From a virus (taxonomy: Duplodnaviria > Heunggongvirae > Uroviricota > Caudoviricetes): a stretch of DNA of 12,873 nucleotides. The notes beneath the pieces were generated by a model. The model was not told the DNA's origin and ran no database searches. It saw only the letters and a program-made list of their open reading frames with translations. A program made the translations under genes and the position numbers. The stretch lies in the IMG/VR virus record IMGVR_UViG_2909309443_000005; one strand, given 5' to 3'. Below, in pieces: positions 2 through 9,887 of this stretch; positions within the stretch are counted from its first letter, which is position 1, and every line of letters starts with the position of its first letter.

Positions 2-1297
2 TTAATTTTTCATTGCTTCGTTATGGGGCATGGTTGGGGCAAACTCGCTTAACTGTGTATTTAACAAAGCTACCTGTGCATTATTGTTTTCAGACATCCA
101 TTTTCCGTATACCTGAAATACCATTTGCGCATCTGCATGGCCCATCTGGTTTGCTATAAATGCCGGGTTAGCACCAGCTGTCAGCGACCAGCAGGCATAA
201 GTATGTCTCGACTGATATGATTTTCGATGGCGGAGTCCGGCACGTTTTATCGCTGCGTCCCACATCTGCCTTATTGAGTCAACGGTAAAATGGTCACCAT
301 AATTTTTTACTCTCGCTGACACTTCAGGTTGAAAAACAAAGGTGCATTTATGTTTTTCTGTTCTGCCATACTCTCTGAGGTGAACATCAATGATATGCTC
401 TTTGCTCAGTCTCGTTAATGTCATCTGACTCCGGAGAGCGTCGATTGCTGGCTTAATAAGATGAATGACCCGATTGGTTCCCGCCTGTGTTTTTGGGACC
501 GTGAAACGGTCTTTTGCTAAATTTCTCCTGATCATCATTGTTCCATTTTTCAGATCTATGTCCTCCCATCCAAGTGCACACAGCTCACCAGGGCGAACGC
601 CAGTATAAACAGAAACACACCATAAATTTTTGGCTTGCTGATTTCTGCACGCATCGATAAGACGGATGAATTCCTCCCGCGAAAGAGGATCCGGAATGGT
701 TCTTGATTCCTTTAATGGCGAGATCCCCTTAAACGGGTTATCTGCCAGGTAACCGTTATCAACACCAAACTGGAACACGGCGTTAAGATTTGTCATGTAA
801 TTATTTACAGTTACAGCCGATCTCCCTGGTTGTGTAACAATATAGTTACTTTTGGGGATCTGGTATCCAGTCAGTAGCTCTTTACGAACCTCCAGTAATT
901 TTTCTTTATTAATCGATGAGGCAAGATTTTTTTCACCGATTATGCTCAGGATATTTTTGATGACGGCACGGTATGTGTTGAGTGATGTTTTGGCGACTTC
1001 AGTTTCTTTCAGTGCCAGAAATTTTTCAGCCAGTTCTTTTATGGTTAAATCTTGTCGGGCCTCACCAAATTTTTCCAGATTGCGTGAGGAGGGAAACTGT
1101 TTTGCATAGTCGAAAACACCAGTTTTTATTGCGTAACAAACAGAGGAGCGTAGTTCACCTGCAACGCGCCTGTTTTTTGCTGTGTCAGGAACCCCCAGAT
1201 TTTCCCTGACTCTTACGCCTTTATAAACAAACCAGATACGTAATTTCCCTCCATGGTTTTCCACGCCTGTCGGATATTTCATTTCAACTTCTCTCAT
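2..1297 (-). CDS. int: Lambdoid prophage tyrosine integrase (Rac/Qin IntR-type)
   Basis: 431-aa ORF with TAA stop at 2-4. The N-terminus (MKYPTGVE...IRIWF) and C-terminal region (RHRKSYQSRHTYACW...GANP.FIA.QMGH..AQMVF.VYGKWM) match my recollection of Rac IntR and lambda-family integrase catalytic motifs. An alternative start at ATG 1282 (MKYPTGVE) has a better SD-like GAGAGAAG upstream. The 3' end lies at the window edge, so the att site is not visible. Confidence 0.9.
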   Translation of the reverse strand: MREVEMKYPTGVENHGGKLRIWFVYKGVRVRENLGVPDTAKNRRVAGELRSSVCYAIKTGVFDYAKQFPSSRNLEKFGEARQDLTIKELAEKFLALKETEVAKTSLNTYRAVIKNILSIIGEKNLASSINKEKLLEVRKELLTGYQIPKSNYIVTQPGRSAVTVNNYMTNLNAVFQFGVDNGYLADNPFKGISPLKESRTIPDPLSREEFIRLIDACRNQQAKNLWCVSVYTGVRPGELCALGWEDIDLKNGTMMIRRNLAKDRFTVPKTQAGTNRVIHLIKPAIDALRSQMTLTRLSKEHIIDVHLREYGRTEKHKCTFVFQPEVSARVKNYGDHFTVDSIRQMWDAAIKRAGLRHRKSYQSRHTYACWSLTAGANPAFIANQMGHADAQMVFQVYGKWMSENNNAQVALLNTQLSEFAPTMPHNEAMKN

Positions 1298-1316
1298 TAG
1301 TTAGTGTGGCTTTTAG

Positions 1317-1568
1317 TCAAGTAAGATGACGTCTTGGTCTTGCTGATGCCTGGCGCTCAATCCAGCGATCAATTTCTTCCAGGTTGTAAAAGCATGGACT
1401 GTTATCCCATGGCATACCGTCATGAGCGACATGCTTATATTCCCTTCCTTCCATAAACGATTTTTCCCGGGCCTTTTTTAACGTACCTTTTTTTATTCCT
1501 TTCAGCGCAATTAACTGCTCTTCGGATACCCATTTGCCGGGAGAGACAATCATGATTACTTCGCTCAT
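1317..1568 (-). CDS. Excisionase-like small protein (Xis/DUF1233-type) upstream of int
   Basis: 83-aa ORF directly upstream of and co-oriented with int (20-bp gap). Sequence (…SPGKWVSEEQLIALKGIKKGTLKKAREKSFMEGREYKHV…) resembles lambdoid prophage excisionase-like proteins as I recall them. Position is typical for xis. Confidence 0.65.
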   Translation of the reverse strand: MSEVIMIVSPGKWVSEEQLIALKGIKKGTLKKAREKSFMEGREYKHVAHDGMPWDNSPCFYNLEEIDRWIERQASARPRRHLT

Positions 1569-1597
1569 CGATTTCTTTATCTCTTACATCAGACGAG

Positions 1598-1629
1598 CGC
1601 CGGTTGCAGAATACCAGTCACAACCGGCG
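1598..1629. repeat. Perfect 9-bp inverted repeat (CGCCGGTTG ... CAACCGGCG) with 14-nt loop, between exonuclease and xis genes
   Basis: Read directly from the sequence at 1598-1606 and 1621-1629. No U-run follows on the transcribed (minus) strand, so it is not a canonical intrinsic terminator. Confidence 0.5.
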
Positions 1630-1640
1630 ACAGTTGAACA

Positions 1641-3875
1641 TTAAGAATCAGCCTGACTCGGGATCAGTTTTTGCCAGATAGCTGAAACGTATTTTGCCTG
1701 GTAACGGGCGTCATCAAGTGCATTATGGCGCTCACCTTCGAATGGAATAGCCGTTCTGGCATCGAAGTCTATGGCTTTCCCCAGCTCAACGATTGTGCGT
1801 ACATCGCGATCGTTGTAGTAACGCCACGGGCAGGGGATCCCCTGCCGTTCGTATGAACGGCGCAAAATCGTGTTGTCGAAGTTGGCTCCATTTCCCCAGA
1901 CATGAACAAAAAATTCACCGGAGTTTTCGTCGATAAATTCCCGCAATTGTAACAGTGCATCATCTAACGGGATTTCATCGGTCATAATGGCAGATTGCGC
2001 TTCGCGTGATTGTTTAAGCCACCATTTAATGGTGTCCCGATCAATGACTCCGCCAGCAGTTTCCAGATCGATAGTCTTACTAAATTCCGGTCCCATATCT
2101 CCGGTTTGCGGATCGAAAAATATTGCACCTATTGAGATAATCGGGGCATCGGGATTTTTTCCCATGGTTTCAAGGTCGATCATCAGATGAATCCCCGCTC
2201 TGCTGGTGGATGTGAGATTATGATGACCGTTTGCCTTAATTAAGGGATCTGACGCCTCGCCAGTTTCACTATCGCTGGCATGATGCTGATTGCCGCCAGT
2301 GTTCTCCTTGTGCTGATGCGCAGTGCCTTCCATTTCCTCCGGATCATTTTCCTGAACTTCAGGCTGATTCTCTCCATCGAATATTTCCTGGTATGTTGCG
2401 TCACCCATCACCGCACCACAATCAGGGCAGTTGCCGCCACCGCTCTGACCGCAGGCGGTGCAGATCTTTTCCGGTTCCTGTTGCACTACTGGTTCAGGTT
2501 GTTTCGTTTCTGGCTCGTTTTGTTGCGTATTTGGGCTGTTTTGTTCCGCTTTCTGGTCGTTCTGTTCCGTTTCTTGCTGGTTCTGGTTCACAGAATCGCG
2601 GGTCTGGATCCCCTTAATCCATTTCGGATCATTCGGGTCGCTAATCCCTTCAACAAATTCACCACGTGATACTGCAAGCAGTTCATCGGCGTCAGGCTGG
2701 CTGATATTGGCTGCCTGCATAATTTTGTTTACTTCGTCAGCGGTAACTTTTACCGGTTCTGGCTGTGCGGTCGTGTCAGATGCACCAGTATTTTGTTGTG
2801 AACCTGAGCATGTACTGTTTTTGCGGGCGAAATATTCTTCTTTCGTGATTTCAGTAGCCCCGGCAGCCAGCGCCTTATCCAGACCAGAAAGTTTATTTGC
2901 GCGACCGTATTTTTCGCCATCCTTGTCGGTGAAGAGGAAGTAGAACGGCCCCTCACGTTCTACAGATGGTTCGACTTCCACTTTGCATTCGGTTTTTTCG
3001 TTGTCTGGAATTGCCGTTTCCACTGCATCAGTTTCTGGTACTGGCGACGAGAGAGTATCAGTTGCGCTCTGATTTGTTCCTTCATCTTCAAACACGCCCT
3101 TTGTAGTCAGGTATTCAGTAATGTATTTGTTCAGTGCCACAGGGTCTTTGTGAATGTCGATCGGACGTTCACGGACAAGGCCAAAAATAGTCTGGCGGTC
3201 GTAGCGAAGGGCATCAGGCTGTTTGCGCATTGATGCCGAGATACGCTTCCAGTCTTCGCGGTCGTTGTCGATAACTTCATTTTTTGCCCAGCGATGGATG
3301 CTGCCGTCAATGTTTCCGGCATCCACATCACCAGGCCAGAGAGCGTAGGCCAGTTCGTCATCCAGTGTTTTCCATGTCTGCTTGTATTCGCGATGAATGG
3401 CAGCAATGACCGGGTTGATTTTTCCTGTTGAATTTTCAGTGTGCTGTTGATTGGCTCTGGCGCGGGCGAGATCAACAACAGACGTGTATTTTCCGGCTTC
3501 CTTGCGTTCACCTTCGCGACGTTTTTTCCAGATGCGCATCTCTGTCTGAATTTCGGGCCATTTGGCACCAGGCTTACATTTATGCTTAACCCACCCGATG
3601 GCATGCAGCTTAAGCTCCGGATACATAGCGTTAACTTCTGGCATTTTCATCAACGCTTCAACGATATGGCCGTCGAATGTTGCCATGTCTTCCTGCAACA
3701 ATTCCTGTGCGCTAATCACCATATCAACAGTGATGTTTTCACATGTGTCGAACTTAACCATGACAGCGTTCTGTACTTCAGGGGCTAGGTTGTCAAAAGT
3801 GACGTTCATCGGATCGGATTCAGTCTCGACCGGGACAAAGGAAGCAGACGCCTCATCCCAGCGGTTTTCCTGCAT
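1641..3875 (-). CDS. Phage early-region exonuclease with C-terminal DEDDh (DnaQ-like) 3'-5' exonuclease domain
   Basis: 744-aa ORF. The C-terminal ~190 aa carry DEDDh motifs (MIDLETMG; HVWGNGANFDNTIL; HNALDDARYQAKY). The middle has a Q/E/P-rich low-complexity linker and a C-x2-C-x7-C-x2-C zinc-ribbon-like motif (CTACGQSGGGNCPDCG). ATG at 3873-3875 with in-frame stops upstream at 3921-3923 and 3942-3944. Confidence 0.8.
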   Translation of the reverse strand: MQENRWDEASASFVPVETESDPMNVTFDNLAPEVQNAVMVKFDTCENITVDMVISAQELLQEDMATFDGHIVEALMKMPEVNAMYPELKLHAIGWVKHKCKPGAKWPEIQTEMRIWKKRREGERKEAGKYTSVVDLARARANQQHTENSTGKINPVIAAIHREYKQTWKTLDDELAYALWPGDVDAGNIDGSIHRWAKNEVIDNDREDWKRISASMRKQPDALRYDRQTIFGLVRERPIDIHKDPVALNKYITEYLTTKGVFEDEGTNQSATDTLSSPVPETDAVETAIPDNEKTECKVEVEPSVEREGPFYFLFTDKDGEKYGRANKLSGLDKALAAGATEITKEEYFARKNSTCSGSQQNTGASDTTAQPEPVKVTADEVNKIMQAANISQPDADELLAVSRGEFVEGISDPNDPKWIKGIQTRDSVNQNQQETEQNDQKAEQNSPNTQQNEPETKQPEPVVQQEPEKICTACGQSGGGNCPDCGAVMGDATYQEIFDGENQPEVQENDPEEMEGTAHQHKENTGGNQHHASDSETGEASDPLIKANGHHNLTSTSRAGIHLMIDLETMGKNPDAPIISIGAIFFDPQTGDMGPEFSKTIDLETAGGVIDRDTIKWWLKQSREAQSAIMTDEIPLDDALLQLREFIDENSGEFFVHVWGNGANFDNTILRRSYERQGIPCPWRYYNDRDVRTIVELGKAIDFDARTAIPFEGERHNALDDARYQAKYVSAIWQKLIPSQADS

Positions 3876-4159: not shown

Positions 4160-4468
4160 GTGACTCACATGACAAAAACAGTATCAACCAGTAAAAAACC
4201 CCGTAAACAGCATTCGCCTGAATTTCGCAGTGAAGCCCTGAAGCTTGCTGAACGCATCGGTGTTACTGCCGCAGCCCGTGAACTCAGCCTGTATGAATCA
4301 CAACTCTACAACTGGCGCAGTAAACAGCAAAATCAGCAGACGTCTTCTGAACGTGAACTGGAGATGTCTACCGAGATTGCACGTCTCAAACGCCAGCTGG
4401 CAGAACGGGATGAAGAGCTGGCTATCCTCCAAAAGGCCGCGACATACTTCGCGAAGCGCCTGAAATGA
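4160..4468 (+). CDS. insE: IS3 OrfA (transposase N-terminal / DNA-binding protein)
   Basis: 102-aa ORF starting [32 protein letters not shown]..., matching IS3 OrfA from memory; helix-turn-helix plus leucine-zipper-like C-terminus. Confidence 0.95.
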
Positions 4469-5331
4469 AGTATGTCTTTATTGAAAAACATCAGGCTGAG
4501 TTCAGCATCAAAGCAATGTGCCGCGTGCTCCGGGTGGCCCGCAGCGGCTGGTATACGTGGTGTCAGCGGCGGACAAGGATAAGCACGCGTCAGCAGTTCC
4601 GCCAACACTGCGACAGCGTTGTCCTCGCGGCTTTTACCCGGTCAAAACAGCGTTACGGTGCCCCACGCCTGACGGATGAACTGCGTGCTCAGGGTTACCC
4701 CTTTAACGTAAAAACCGTGGCGGCAAGCCTGCGCCGTCAGGGACTGAGGGCAAAGGCCTCCCGGAAGTTCAGCCCGGTCAGCTACCGCGCACACGGCCTG
4801 CCTGTGTCAGAAAATCTGTTGGAGCAGGATTTTTACGCCAGTGGCCCGAACCAGAAGTGGGCAGGAGACATCACGTACTTACGTACAGATGAAGGCTGGC
4901 TGTATCTGGCAGTGGTCATTGACCTGTGGTCACGTGCCGTTATTGGCTGGTCAATGTCGCCACGCATGACGGCGCAACTGGCCTGCGATGCCCTGCAGAT
5001 GGCGCTGTGGCGGCGTAAGAGGCCCCGGAACGTTATCGTTCACACGGACCGTGGAGGCCAGTACTGTTCAGCAGATTATCAGGCGCAACTGAAGCGGCAT
5101 AATCTGCGTGGAAGTATGAGCGCAAAAGGTTGCTGCTACGATAATGCCTGCGTGGAAAGCTTCTTTCATTCGCTGAAAGTGGAATGTATCCATGGAGAAC
5201 ACTTTATCAGCCGGGAAATAATGCGGGCAACGGTGTTTAATTATATCGAATGTGATTACAATCGGTGGCGGCGGCACAGTTGGTGTGGCGGCCTCAGTCC
5301 GGAACAATTTGAAAACAAGAACCTCGCTTAG
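4465..5331 (+). CDS. insF: IS3 OrfB (DDE transposase catalytic domain; expressed as OrfAB by -1 frameshift)
   Basis: 288-aa ORF overlapping the orfA stop in the -1 frame; contains DDE/rve-type residues (…WAGDITYL…[10 protein letters not shown]…SFFHSLKVE…). Confidence 0.95.
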
Positions 5332-5361
5332 GCCTGTGTCCATATTACGTGGGTAGGATCA

Positions 5362-5888
5362 TCCACCCTAAAACTATGACCAAGTATGAGATCGTCATCG
5401 TAACTACAATTGCCGTGAATATGTATGATTTGCTCGTCTGGAACGGCATAGATCTGCTGCAAGGTATTTGTATAATTAAATGAAAAATAGATGCTTTCTC
5501 TTGGTATGGGCGGGATGTATTGCTTAGGATTGTAAGCATCGGCTATGTTAATCCCTTTAACCCAATCAGCGAATTGCTCCTTCAAACGAGCTGACAGCAT
5601 TTGTGTGATTTTATTTACTTCATATTGGTAATCGTGATGATAAGCATCGCTCCAATCATCGGTATTGTATGAAGCCAAAAATATCTCACTGTTTTGAAGG
5701 ATAAGCTCATAATCAATTTCACCTAAAGCATTTTCTAACTCATTCCACTCGTCCCCAGCAGGAATGTATTCTTCTATCGCGTCATATAGATCTTGGTCAT
5801 TTTTTTCTACATACGACTTAAAGTGCTTGTATCCTGTTGGTAAGCCATGACGCATGTCAAATCCATTTCCTATTATGTAAAGCCTCAT
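5362..5888 (-). pseudogene. AbiH-like abortive-infection protein, N-terminal ~175 codons, 3'-truncated by IS3
   Basis: Minus-strand ORF from ATG 5888 (SD AAGGGA 6 nt upstream) encodes MRLYIIGNGFDMRHGLPTGYKHFKSY...SFNYTNTLQQIYAVPDEQIIHIHGNC. The N-terminal IIGNGFD..HGL motif and the FNYT...IHIHG motif are typical of the AbiH family as I recall it. The frame runs into the IS3 right end at 5361, and the last 11 codons of the six-frame ORF (5328-5361) are IS3-derived. Confidence 0.6.
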
Positions 5889-6202
5889 TGTTTTTCCCTT
5901 AGTCGAATTGTATAAAAATACTAACATGGCCTGCTCCACGTTGACTACTATCCCCTCCTTTGAGTAATGCCTTCATCAGATGTAACAACATTTGCGAGCT
6001 TCCACAGTTCGCTCAAAGCGGACTAGAAGGTTAGCTTGCGTCGGACTTGGCGTATTTAAAGAAGTGCTGGTGGAGACTGGTTGTTGTGTTCCATTTCTAC
6101 AGAACAAAATCACAGAAACTATACCCAATAGTTATATTGAATCAATGATGAGACAGCCTCATATTTATCAGGACTGGTGTACGTCCAATACAGGAGGTTG
6201 TC

Positions 6203-6292
6203 GTGCTGGTTCTCAAATGTGCGCTAGCTATTGCGGCTGTAATGGCAATTTATTGTCTTGCTGTTGTTCTTACGGATCGCCTTTCTGATTGA
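6203..6292 (+). CDS. Hypothetical 29-aa hydrophobic peptide (GTG start): MLVLKCALAIAAVMAIYCLAVVLTDRLSD
   Basis: Consensus SD AGGAGG (6192-6197) with 5-nt spacer to GTG 6203; the frame is open for 29 codons to TGA 6290-6292. The peptide is one predicted transmembrane helix with a short polar tail. Absent from the ORF track because of the GTG start. Could be a chance ORF. Confidence 0.25.
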   Translation: MLVLKCALAIAAVMAIYCLAVVLTDRLSD

Positions 6293-6299
6293 TTTTATA

Positions 6300-6328
6300 T
6301 TGGCGAGGTGACGTGAGTTAAGTAGAAT
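6300..6328 (+). promoter_or_regulatory. Putative sigma70 promoter for mok/hok mRNA (-35 TTGGCG, 17-bp spacer, -10 TAGAAT)
   Basis: Sequence-based hexamer match about 120 nt upstream of the mok start, consistent with the long structured leader of hok-family mRNAs. Not experimentally anchored. Confidence 0.3.
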
Positions 6329-6369
6329 TGCTGCGGGTGCTTGAGGCTATCTGCCTCAGGCATGAACAC

Positions 6370-6460
6370 CAAAGGCAGATAGAGAAAAGCCCCAGTTAAC
6401 ATTACGCGTCCTGCAAGACGCTTAACATTAATCTGAGGCCAATTTCATGCTAGACACATG
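6370..6460 (-). ncRNA. Putative Sok-type antisense RNA region (approximate, inferred by analogy)
   Basis: In hok/sok loci Sok is transcribed antisense across the mok translation-initiation region. A weak candidate promoter on the minus strand (-35 TTGCCT at 6486-6491, -10 TAACCT at 6463-6468 in plus coordinates) is the only sequence support. Boundaries are guesses. Confidence 0.25.
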
Positions 6461-6659
6461 TAGGTTAGCCTCTTACGTGCCGAAAGGCAAGGAGAAGCAG
6501 GCTATGAAGCAGCAAAAGGCGATGTTAATCGCCCTGATCGTCATCTGTTTAACCGTCATAGTGACGGCACTGGTAACGAGGAAAGACCTCTGCGAGGTAC
6601 GAATCCGAACCGGCCAGACGGAGGTCGCTGTCTTCACAGCTTACGAACCTGAGGAGTAA
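6447..6659 (+). CDS. Mok (modulator of killing) reading frame, in-frame N-terminal extension of Hok
   Basis: ATG 6447 preceded by GAGG. The 70-aa product MLDTCRLASYVPKGKEKQA-MKQQKAM... has the same architecture as chromosomal MokC of K-12, as I recall it. Confidence 0.6.
   Translation: MLDTCRLASYVPKGKEKQAMKQQKAMLIALIVICLTVIVTALVTRKDLCEVRIRTGQTEVAVFTAYEPEE
6504..6659 (+). CDS. hokD: Hok/Gef-family type I toxin (HokD/RelF-like), 51 aa
   Basis: MKQQKAMLIALIVICLTVIVTALVTRKDLCEVRIRTGQTEVAVFTAYEPEE matches my recollection of E. coli HokD (RelF) and is close to HokC/Gef. SD AAGGAG lies 9 nt upstream of ATG 6504. A GC stem-loop (GGCGAGGG...CCCTCGCC, 6667-6688) follows the stop. Confidence 0.9.
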   Translation: MKQQKAMLIALIVICLTVIVTALVTRKDLCEVRIRTGQTEVAVFTAYEPEE

Positions 6660-8971: not shown

Positions 8972-9189
8972 CTAATAAGTATCATTTCGGGTGGGGATTT
9001 TATTGTTTAACCCATAATAGTTCATTGACATTGAATCCCAACTTTTGAGCGGTACGCACATAGTCTGCTTTTACATTATCTGGAATAGTTTGGGTCCTTG
9101 CCAGAATCCATAGGTATTCTCTGTTCGGACCACTGGTGATGCTGCCAACTTACTGATTTAGTGTATGATGGTGTTTTTGAGGTGCTCCA

Positions 9190-9465
9190 GTGGCTTCTGT
9201 TTCTATCAGCTGTCCCTCCTGTTCAGCTACTGACGGGGTGGTGCGTAACGGCAAAAGCACCGCCGGACATCAGCGCTATCTCTGCTCTCACTGCCGTAAA
9301 ACATGGCAACTGCAGTTCACTTACACCGCTTCTCAACCCGGTACGCACCAGAAAATCATTGATATGGCCATGAATGGCGTTGGATGCCGGGCAACTGCCC
9401 GCATTATGGGCGTTGGCCTCAACACGGTTTTACGTCACTTAAAAAACTCAGGCCGCAGTCGGTAA
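9190..9465 (+). CDS. insA: IS1 InsA
   Basis: 91-aa [48 protein letters not shown]..., matching IS1 InsA from memory. Confidence 0.95.
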
Positions 9466-9887
9466 CCTCGCGCATACAACCGGGCAGTGATGTGATTGTC
9501 TGCGCGGAAATGGACGAACAGTGGGGCTACGTCGGTGCTAAATCACGTCAGCGCTGGCTGTTTTACGCGTATGACAGGATACGGAGGACAGTTGTGGCGC
9601 ACGTTTTCGGTGAACGCACTCTGGCCACACTGGCGCGTCTTCTGAGCCTGCTGTCGGCCTTTGAGGTCGTGGTATGGATGACGGATGGCTGGCCGCTGTA
9701 TGAATCCCGCCTGAAGGGAAAGCTGCACGTTATCAGCAAGCGTTACACTCAGCGCATTGAGCGACATAATCTGAATCTGAGACAACATCTGGCAAGGCTG
9801 GGACGGAAGTTACTGTCGTTCTCAAAATCGGTGGAGCTGCATGACAAGGTCATCGGGCATTATCTGAACATAAAACACTATCAGTAA
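9384..9887 (+). CDS. insB: IS1 InsB' frame (transposase InsAB' made by -1 frameshift from insA)
   Basis: 167-aa ORF in the -1 frame relative to insA, overlapping it around the A6C motif. Confidence 0.9.

Follow-up and report, generated by a model that had tools for sequence, protein, structure and literature searches.

Does a prophage hok locus hold more than the genes it is known for? The hok/sok locus is the founding type I toxin–antitoxin system and is described as a three-gene unit (hok, mok and sok). We analysed a window of 12,873 nucleotides (nt) of viral DNA (Caudoviricetes; IMG/VR record IMGVR_UViG_2909309443_000005), a decayed Qin-like lambdoid prophage of E. coli in which a short hydrophobic open reading frame (ORF) at positions 6203–6292 immediately precedes the hok promoter. 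An earlier note on this DNA, made from the letters alone, had singled out the ORF as a small toxin, a small membrane protein or a product of chance. Our analysis indicates that the stretch from GTG 6203 to TGA 6292 is very probably a genuine protein-coding gene. On balance we favour a constitutively translated, single-pass inner-membrane microprotein of the prophage hok cassette, a non-toxic accessory and not a second type I toxin. The hok versions of E. coli prophages carry such a further conserved membrane microprotein gene before the hok promoter, sometimes two in tandem, and the region of the type found in the window (class A) occurs in about one third of complete E. coli genomes (1928 of 5426, at ~82–100% identity).

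A short ORF with strong translation signals

Read from the window sequence, the frame opens with GTG at 6203, runs for 28 more codons and closes with TGA at 6290–6292, giving the 29-residue product MLVLKCALAIAAVMAIYCLAVVLTDRLSD. A consensus Shine–Dalgarno (SD) hexamer, AGGAGG at 6192–6197, is separated from the start by the 5-nt spacer TTGTC. These elements are all present as the earlier note had described them. It had also placed the end of the ORF inside the hok −35 region; the stop in fact lies 7 nt upstream of the −35 hexamer TTGGCG at 6300, and 211 nt separate the end of the ORF from the hok start.

6192–6197, plus strand: SD sequence AGGAGG, with none of its six positions variable in 58 haplotypes
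6203–6292, plus strand: 29-codon ORF for a predicted single-pass membrane microprotein, MLVLKCALAIAAVMAIYCLAVVLTDRLSD, based on sequence, conservation, frame-specific substitution and a translated paralogue
6300–6328, plus strand: hok promoter TTGGCG-17-TAGAAT, from a consensus promoter scan
6335–6509, plus strand: hok mRNA leader and sok region, Rfam RF01794 (119.9 bits, E = 1.9e-27)
6447–6659, plus strand: mok frame, 70 amino acids (aa), the homologous ORF being labelled MokW or MokC in phages and in Sakai
6504–6659, plus strand: hokD toxin coding sequence, 51 aa (WP_000813254.1)

Annotation pipelines treat the small ORF inconsistently. It is annotated neither in the RefSeq record of the identical genome nor in 40 sampled RefSeq genomes, and to that extent it is 'unannotated', as had been claimed. 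The claim does not extend to protein records: GenBank and RefSeq hold sporadic 29–37-aa entries for the product and close variants, named 'membrane protein' or 'hypothetical protein', and one close variant has a RefSeq MULTISPECIES record. What is new here is the definition of the family and of the rule that associates it with hok, set against these sporadic entries and one paralogue in a ribosome profiling (Ribo-seq) catalogue.

Constraint acts in one reading frame

We compared 130 homologous class A loci, many of them from related prophages. The ORF contains no indels and no stops in any of them except E. coli C10, where an 11-nt deletion takes away the stop and adds six residues, for a product of 35 aa. 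Among 58 haplotypes of the homologous block, AGGAGG, GTG, TGA and an upstream CATATT (6160–6165) are invariant. Codons 2–29 of the ORF vary at 10 of 84 sites, the 5' untranslated region (UTR) at 13 of 26 and the spacer of a putative promoter further upstream at 5 of 17; for the hok promoter, the −10 hexamer is invariant, the −35 hexamer varies at one of six positions and the spacer at 6 of 17. Heterozygosity at codon positions 1, 2 and 3 is 0.016, 0.020 and 0.073, respectively. A GGAG core 5–8 nt before the start is retained in all upstream contexts and in the related classes C, D and E described below.

Substitutions follow the same frame. Of 23 variant alleles in the GTG frame, 12 are synonymous and 11 nonsynonymous, where the expected synonymous fraction is 0.315 (binomial P=0.03); synonymous variants number 5 of 22 and 4 of 22 in the other two frames (P=0.92 and 0.94). 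All 11 replacements are conservative (A/V/T, V/I, M/T/V, D/N, R/H and S/T). Distant pairs drawn from six lineages give ratios of nonsynonymous to synonymous substitution rates (dN/dS) of 0.18–0.51, and the lineages differ in length by +3, +6 and +15 nt, always in frame. The earlier note had proposed conservation and synonymous-substitution analysis as a check, and the outcome, an intact frame with this pattern of change, speaks for the gene: purifying selection appears to act in the GTG frame only. In remnant loci of the L037 type, where the 5' half of the ORF is gone, what survives at the 3' side has several non-triplet indels, an argument against the view that this end is kept merely as a flank of the promoter.

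The note had cautioned that an SD followed by a short open frame is not rare in 13 kb. The window holds four AGGAGG hexamers, counting both strands together; two of the four have a start codon 4–9 nt downstream and one has a hydrophobic ORF, and none of 300 shuffled windows yielded a comparable combination of SD and hydrophobic ORF. Chance is excluded, because the signals are conserved, the substitution pattern is frame-specific, the indels are in frame and a paralogue is translated.

No class A copy has diverged further than the C10 locus (L003:2501–2669), with its 82.8% identity. Its extended ORF enters the hok promoter, an ISEsa1 insertion cuts off hok, and a SIR2 gene lies upstream. Its stop loss, a single case, may reflect relaxed constraint after loss of hok.

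A family of predicted membrane microproteins

The product has a lysine at position 5, a helix of ~20 residues with a nearly invariant Tyr-Cys-Leu, and a short acidic tail (D/E-R-L-S-D). Its best 19-residue Kyte–Doolittle hydropathy is 2.56, and an AlphaFold2 model of the family consists of one helix spanning residues 2–33, with a predicted local distance difference test (pLDDT) score of 90.5. These predictions support a 29-residue single-pass inner-membrane microprotein and bear out the second of the three original options; like small inner-membrane proteins, it combines a predicted transmembrane helix with translation signals of its own and constraint on the peptide.

We name the branches of the family class A (the window), class C (ECs_5710, also XECs145, of prophage Sp6 in O157 Sakai), D and E. 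An exhaustive profile search of 1.84 billion representative proteins returned 22 matches, all of them members of this microprotein family, and those with a named source come from Escherichia or Enterobacteriaceae. Intermediates among the 22 include P0075 (MLAALKGFVAILAVVAIYCLVVVLMDRLSD), P0076 and P0079. The queries for homologue searches were stop-to-stop translations, the ORF being short, and their N-terminal parts are not real protein. The window ORF matches the family motif A-V-x-x-[IV]-Y-C-L ... [DE]-R, which occurs in single-helix proteins of 29–35 aa. The class C product, MSDDISLAMEGALAVIAVVGVYCLVVFLMDRLGN, is 34 aa long and has an SD of its own (AAGGAGGG) and an ATG start. Over 23 codons, classes A and C are 62–65% identical in DNA and keep 13 of 23 residues, with dN/dS of 0.22–0.36 (permutation P=0.007–0.13). 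Judged from these searches, no member of the family has yet been found beyond Escherichia and close relatives.

Scans of classes A, B and C against Pfam, NCBIfam and PHROGs, and of classes A, B, C and D with PADLOC, gave nothing above noise (class B, a different ORF, is introduced below). A profile search of the PDB gave 0 matches, and degenerate-pattern scans of viral and metagenome contigs for the DNA of the divergent member P0079 found nothing. Two kinships were considered and rejected. A relative of Hok/Gef is one: there is no PF01848 match at E<=1, and hhalign of the family profile against HokD returns a probability of 0.9% over four columns. The other is a mok-type leader ORF; the small ORF has already closed, at 6292, before the hok promoter begins, and the real mok lies at 6447–6659.

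The Sakai paralogue is translated

The class C member has published translation data. XECs145 corresponds to ECs_5710 in the current Sakai RefSeq record, a 34-aa hypothetical protein of prophage Sp6 directly upstream of mok/hok, and its listed sequence ends in ...MSDDISLAMEGALAVIAVVGVYCLVVFLMDRLGN (supplementary tables, PMC5597208). In lysogeny broth (LB), its transcriptome and translatome signals are 79.1 and 346.1 reads per kilobase per million (RPKM), with a ribosomal coverage value (RCV) of 4.35 and coverage of 0.99; in the brain heart infusion (BHI) control they are 121.3 and 150.1 RPKM, with an RCV of 1.14 and coverage of 0.84 (Huecker et al. 2017, PMC5597208, S2 Table). Short annotated genes average an RCV of 1.55 in LB, and XECs145 was rated 'real', a novel small gene with translation and a predicted inner-membrane protein (PMC5597208). 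It ranks among the small ORFs with heavier ribosome coverage in exponential growth. In growing lysogens, the class C paralogue is thus occupied by ribosomes, as the published data show. An ORF of 29 aa could not have entered that catalogue, whose minimum length was 30 aa (PMC5597208).

Of the translatome supplements for Sakai and EDL933, those for Sakai list a family member and those for EDL933 do not. A full-text literature search with peptide strings returned no paper. The small ORF goes unmentioned in a recent Hok survey (bioRxiv 10.1101/2025.08.07.668861) and in a study of hokW (PMC8621323).

The ORF is always followed by hok

We examined the link to hok from both sides. In a collection anchored on the 5' end of hok mRNA, and thus blind to the ORF, 128 usable loci divide into 51 with class A, 20 with class B, 8 with class C, 24 with remnants and 25 others. 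In a collection anchored on the ORF and blind to hok, counting only copies with enough downstream sequence and not those at contig edges, the hok promoter and leader follow at a fixed distance in 126/126 class A and 112/112 class C copies (238/238 in total). A HOK_GEF gene likewise lies downstream of the class D and E members (L326 and L327). The ORF was never seen without hok; hok was often seen without the ORF.

Upstream of the ORF, the surroundings change. There are at least five independent upstream junctions, all before the SD: the neighbour is AbiH in the window, a deletion-fused DUF977 gene in E. coli B, SIR2 in C10 and DUF551 in PapM, and in two divergent family members it is ORF6N and HigB/HTH (helix-turn-helix). 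Homology between genomes begins ~25–85 nt upstream of GTG and continues through the ORF into the hok promoter. The small ORF and the hokD- or hokW-type hok/mok/sok locus thus travel as one unit.

In E. coli B and T7Express (L002:2204–2563), a deletion joins the 3' end of the DUF977 gene to the cassette block. The resulting annotated DUF977 protein of 119 aa extends, in another frame, ~40 nt past the beginning of the small ORF and terminates at a TAA that corresponds to window positions 6240–6242.

Transcription and antisense signals

Two hexamers upstream of the SD could form a promoter for the gene.

6137–6142, plus strand: −35-like TTGAAT of a putative own promoter, proposed from sequence
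6160–6165, plus strand: −10-like CATATT of the same putative promoter, invariant in 58 haplotypes

Of 134 loci, 132 have CATATT 36–44 nt ahead of the start, and 120 have a hexamer reading TTGAAT, TTGAAG, TTGATT or TTGCTG 17 nt before CATATT; the pair recurs, with diverged spacers, in five or more upstream contexts. A weak sigma-70 promoter, TTGAAT-17-CATATT, may therefore transcribe the gene from a transcription start site near 6172. Alternatively, upstream phage operons might transcribe it where the upstream gene is co-oriented; such co-transcription is likely in E. coli B, in L326 and in Sakai. No terminator lies between the ORF and the hok promoter, and the transcript should therefore run into the hok leader, so that transcription of the small ORF would read through into that of hok.

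The −35-like hexamer varies in 7–8 of 58 haplotypes. In 7 of 58 class A haplotypes TTGAAT is replaced by TCTCAT, which makes a perfect 17-nt palindrome, TCTCATCAATGATGAGA, at the putative promoter; the variant is seen at the equivalent of window positions 6137–6153 in L175, L176, L178, L181 and L191. A candidate intrinsic terminator inside the ORF (6227–6246) is a weak stem containing G–T pairs and was given no weight.

On the opposite strand, a promoter-like site (TTAACT-18-TAAAAT) runs from 6321 to 6292, antisense to the small ORF. Its −10 hexamer, TAAAAT, reads TGAAAT in most haplotypes (TTTCAT on the plus strand), and with the −10 lost in this way we rejected a conserved antisense promoter at 6321–6292. 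RNA folding of the ORF region is not significant on the plus (z = −1.49) or minus strand (z = +0.65), and an Rfam scan found no family besides sok. The RF01794 'sok' model matches the plus strand at 6335–6509, which is the sense strand of the hok leader and not the strand from which Sok is transcribed.

Weighing the function of the microprotein

In the reading that we favour, the peptide would insert in the inner membrane, be tolerated there and serve the hok cassette as a non-toxic accessory. Its most plausible role would be to modulate Hok within the membrane, or else some other prophage function at the membrane, for instance exclusion or the timing of lysis. Action on Hok is speculation, prompted by the strict one-directional adjacency and by the likeness of the intramembrane Tyr-Cys-Leu to the Ile-Cys-Leu of the Hok helix. 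HokW is described in the hokW study as aiding release of phage Sp5 (PMC8621323); this indicates only the kind of membrane event that the microprotein could tune.

Several observations weigh against this reading. The locus counts are not independent events, the prophages being related. Short sequences give selection tests of low power, the within-class P is only 0.03, and the pair formed by the window and strain C10 gives dN/dS of 0.48–0.68. The Ribo-seq evidence comes from the class C paralogue, only 52–55% identical to class A, and the published 162-nt XECs145 ORF is over-extended at its 5' end and covers the 3' end of a neighbouring 27-codon ORF. The putative own promoter agrees with the consensus at 8 of 12 positions, was not flagged by a consensus scan and has its −35-like hexamer destroyed in 7 of 58 haplotypes. 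Moreover, no intact small ORF is present in ~38% of the hok loci that share this leader, so hok needs no such gene, and strict adjacency to hok could merely reflect a physical distance of 7–70 nt and not function.

A more specific proposal makes the microprotein a third, protein-level component of hok/sok: a constitutive membrane partner that would bind Hok, perhaps with its intramembrane Tyr-Cys-Leu facing the Ile-Cys-Leu of Hok, and so set the threshold or timing of pore formation. We consider this unlikely. If true, the microprotein would be a proteinaceous brake or helper laid over Sok RNA, with a bearing on abortive infection and on phage release assisted by Hok.

That the ORF encodes a second type I toxin, a pore-forming or membrane-depolarizing peptide silenced by an RNA antitoxin in the manner of TisB, ShoB, ZorO and Hok, seems improbable. 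Its 29 aa, single hydrophobic helix and short polar tail suit such a toxin (type I toxins are small hydrophobic peptides of <60 aa), as does its place beside a bona fide type I system in a prophage defence hotspot with AbiH or SIR2 neighbours, and the minus-strand site at 6321–6292 would yield an antisense RNA. However, the −10 hexamer of that site is not conserved, the only Rfam family (sok) is located downstream on the hok leader, neither strand folds significantly, and the peptide has no similarity to Hok. The SD is strong and invariant, behind a leader of ~30 nt free of long structure. Translation of a type I toxin would be off in growing cells, and the class C paralogue, with its RCV of 4.35 and coverage of 0.99 in exponential growth, displays the opposite of translational silencing. 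The gene thus does not look like a classic type I toxin, because no antisense partner was found, its SD is strong and exposed, and its paralogue is heavily translated in healthy cells. Of the options set out in the earlier note, the small membrane protein is the one that stands; chance falls away, and the toxin is disfavoured for want of a conserved antisense promoter and by the exposed SD and the translated paralogue.

We hold it equally doubtful that the act of transcription or translation matters and not the peptide, with the upstream cistron occluding or boosting the hok promoter, or extending hok mRNA at its 5' end, and thereby tuning hok/sok. Just 7 nt and no terminator separate the stop from the hok −35 hexamer, class A loci all keep one distance to the hok promoter, and the A/T-rich 3' end and flank (GATTGATTTTATA) sit where an UP element of that promoter would be. 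Against this, the amino acids are themselves constrained (dN/dS 0.18–0.5, with Tyr-Cys-Leu and D/E-R conserved), and the product stays hydrophobic between lineages with a DNA identity of only 62–65%. Nor is the spacing family-wide: in class C, the gap between ORF and promoter contains a 22-bp palindrome and ~50 extra nt.

Still less probable is a non-coding conserved flank of the hok promoter, in which the ORF and its SD would be fortuitous and kept through close kinship of the prophages. Most class A copies are >90% identical, the within-class statistics are weak (P=0.03) and the Prokaryotic Genome Annotation Pipeline (PGAP) makes no ORF call in most genomes. Opposing it are the frame-specific synonymous excess and the in-frame indels, diversity that is lower in the ORF than in the flanking UTR, the decay of truncated remnants, the independent SD and start signals of class C with its ATG and different N-terminus, the ribosome footprints over the paralogue and the failure of 300 shuffled windows to give a comparable ORF.

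One other frame overlaps the gene.

5992–6288, plus strand: TTG-initiated Cys-rich ORF, 98 aa, from the ORF list, without an SD and judged spurious

It is the longest open frame across the region and is open in most class A loci, but we give it next to no chance of being a real gene and reject it on its substitution pattern (4/22 variants synonymous in its frame, P=0.94), its lack of an SD, which the earlier note had pointed out, and its unstable start and length (36–112 aa, stop to stop, shifting with every upstream context), besides the non-triplet indels and stops between haplotypes in its upstream part and the mere 8 of 22 residues that it keeps relative to class C.

If the peptide does modulate Hok, a textbook system under RNA control would gain a protein layer, which could bear on the action of prophage hok in phage defence or lysis. 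If it does not, the locus still offers a clean and testable case: a small membrane protein gene that had been missed and whose family, signals and genomic rule are defined.

Window context and the class B and C loci

As the earlier note had placed it, the small ORF lies between an AbiH fragment and the mok/hok locus.

5328–5888, minus strand: AbiH gene (PF14253, E=4.5e-48), truncated by an IS3-family element; context only

The gene order in the window is integrase, excisionase and a 744-aa exonuclease; the IS3-truncated divergent AbiH; the small ORF and hokD; and then DUF968 (ydfU), IS1 and a major facilitator superfamily (MFS) transporter. The int, xis and exonuclease genes occupy 2–3875 on the minus strand, and IS1 lies at ~9161–9887. 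The IS3-family element (orfA 4160–4468, orfB 4465–5331) cuts AbiH down to 186 aa. Related genomes (L001) carry a prophage immunity and replication region that the window lacks.

Class B is a 27-aa ORF (MTWPEAFTTVGIAMAVALVVYSICRWG) upstream of hokW in Shiga toxin (Stx) phages, with a single helix, a GGAGG SD and an end 10–15 nt before the hok −35 hexamer. It has no clear sequence relationship to class A and, unlike class A, also occurs without hok, as in phage ArgO145. It too shows purifying selection, with dN/dS of 0.13 between its two subtypes. The 20 class B copies among the 128 anchor loci include MTWPEAFTTVGIAMAVALVVYSICRWG and, in Sakai, MIWPEAFAITGVAIAIDFLVYVICRWG; examples lie at L325:3344–3427 (Sakai Sp6), L132 ~2501–2581 (phage Min27) and L131:2501–2581 (phage ArgO145). 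The start often overlaps the stop of the preceding gene (ATGA), and at this spot in Min27 the annotated ORF82, on the opposite strand, looks wrong. Clustering at 90% identity groups the class B peptide with 'DUF551 domain-containing' proteins of 121 aa from Shigella and some E. coli (P0098–P0110). Some genomes may therefore carry it as a membrane tail at the C-terminus of a DUF551 protein and not as an ORF of its own, the result of gene fusion or fission.

In Sakai Sp6, a perfect 22-bp palindrome, CGATATGGGAATTCCCATATCG, occupies L325:3576–3597 between the class C ORF and the hok −35 hexamer. The ORF and palindrome are flanked by a direct repeat, GGGTAAAAACG(G)TT, near L325:3422 and L325:3597, and together have the appearance of a small insert that parts the class B ORF from the hok promoter. 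In 16 hok loci the palindrome is kept and the ORF is gone.

Comparison with known systems

ECs_5710 (XECs145) is the closest known counterpart of the window ORF. Both occupy the same site immediately upstream of a hok promoter, with a strong SD and a single helix, and they share ALA(I/V)xAVxx(I/V)YCL(A/V)(V/I)xL(M/T)DRL at 52–55% identity and dN/dS of 0.2–0.4. ECs_5710 differs in its ATG start, its 5-residue acidic N-terminal extension (SDDIS) and its ending in GN where the window product ends in SD. In addition, a 22-bp palindrome separates it from the hok −35 hexamer, another 27-codon membrane ORF precedes it in tandem, and it belongs to a co-oriented nin-region operon, whereas the window ORF stands beside a divergent AbiH gene.

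With hok/mok/sok (hokD, hokW) the gene shares a mobile block, and both Hok and the microprotein are small single-pass proteins with Cys-Leu in the helix. There is no detectable homology between the two, and the ORF lies upstream of the hok promoter, outside the canonical hok mRNA. Unlike mok, it shows neither overlap with hok nor translational coupling to hok, and Sok does not target it.

The short E. coli type I toxins TisB (29 aa), ZorO (29 aa), ShoB (26 aa) and DinQ (27 aa) consist of one hydrophobic helix with a short charged end, and are expressed from mRNAs with long structured 5' UTRs, processing or standby sites and a cognate antisense small RNA (sRNA). The microprotein resembles them in length, helix and charged end, and is unlike them in its leader of ~30 nt, its exposed consensus SD, the absence of any sRNA found and the translation of its paralogue in unstressed cells. 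AcrZ, MgtS and MgrB are non-toxic single-helix proteins of <50 aa whose translation is constitutive or conditional and which bind a larger membrane partner. Unlike these, the microprotein is borne by prophages and restricted to hok-linked cassettes.

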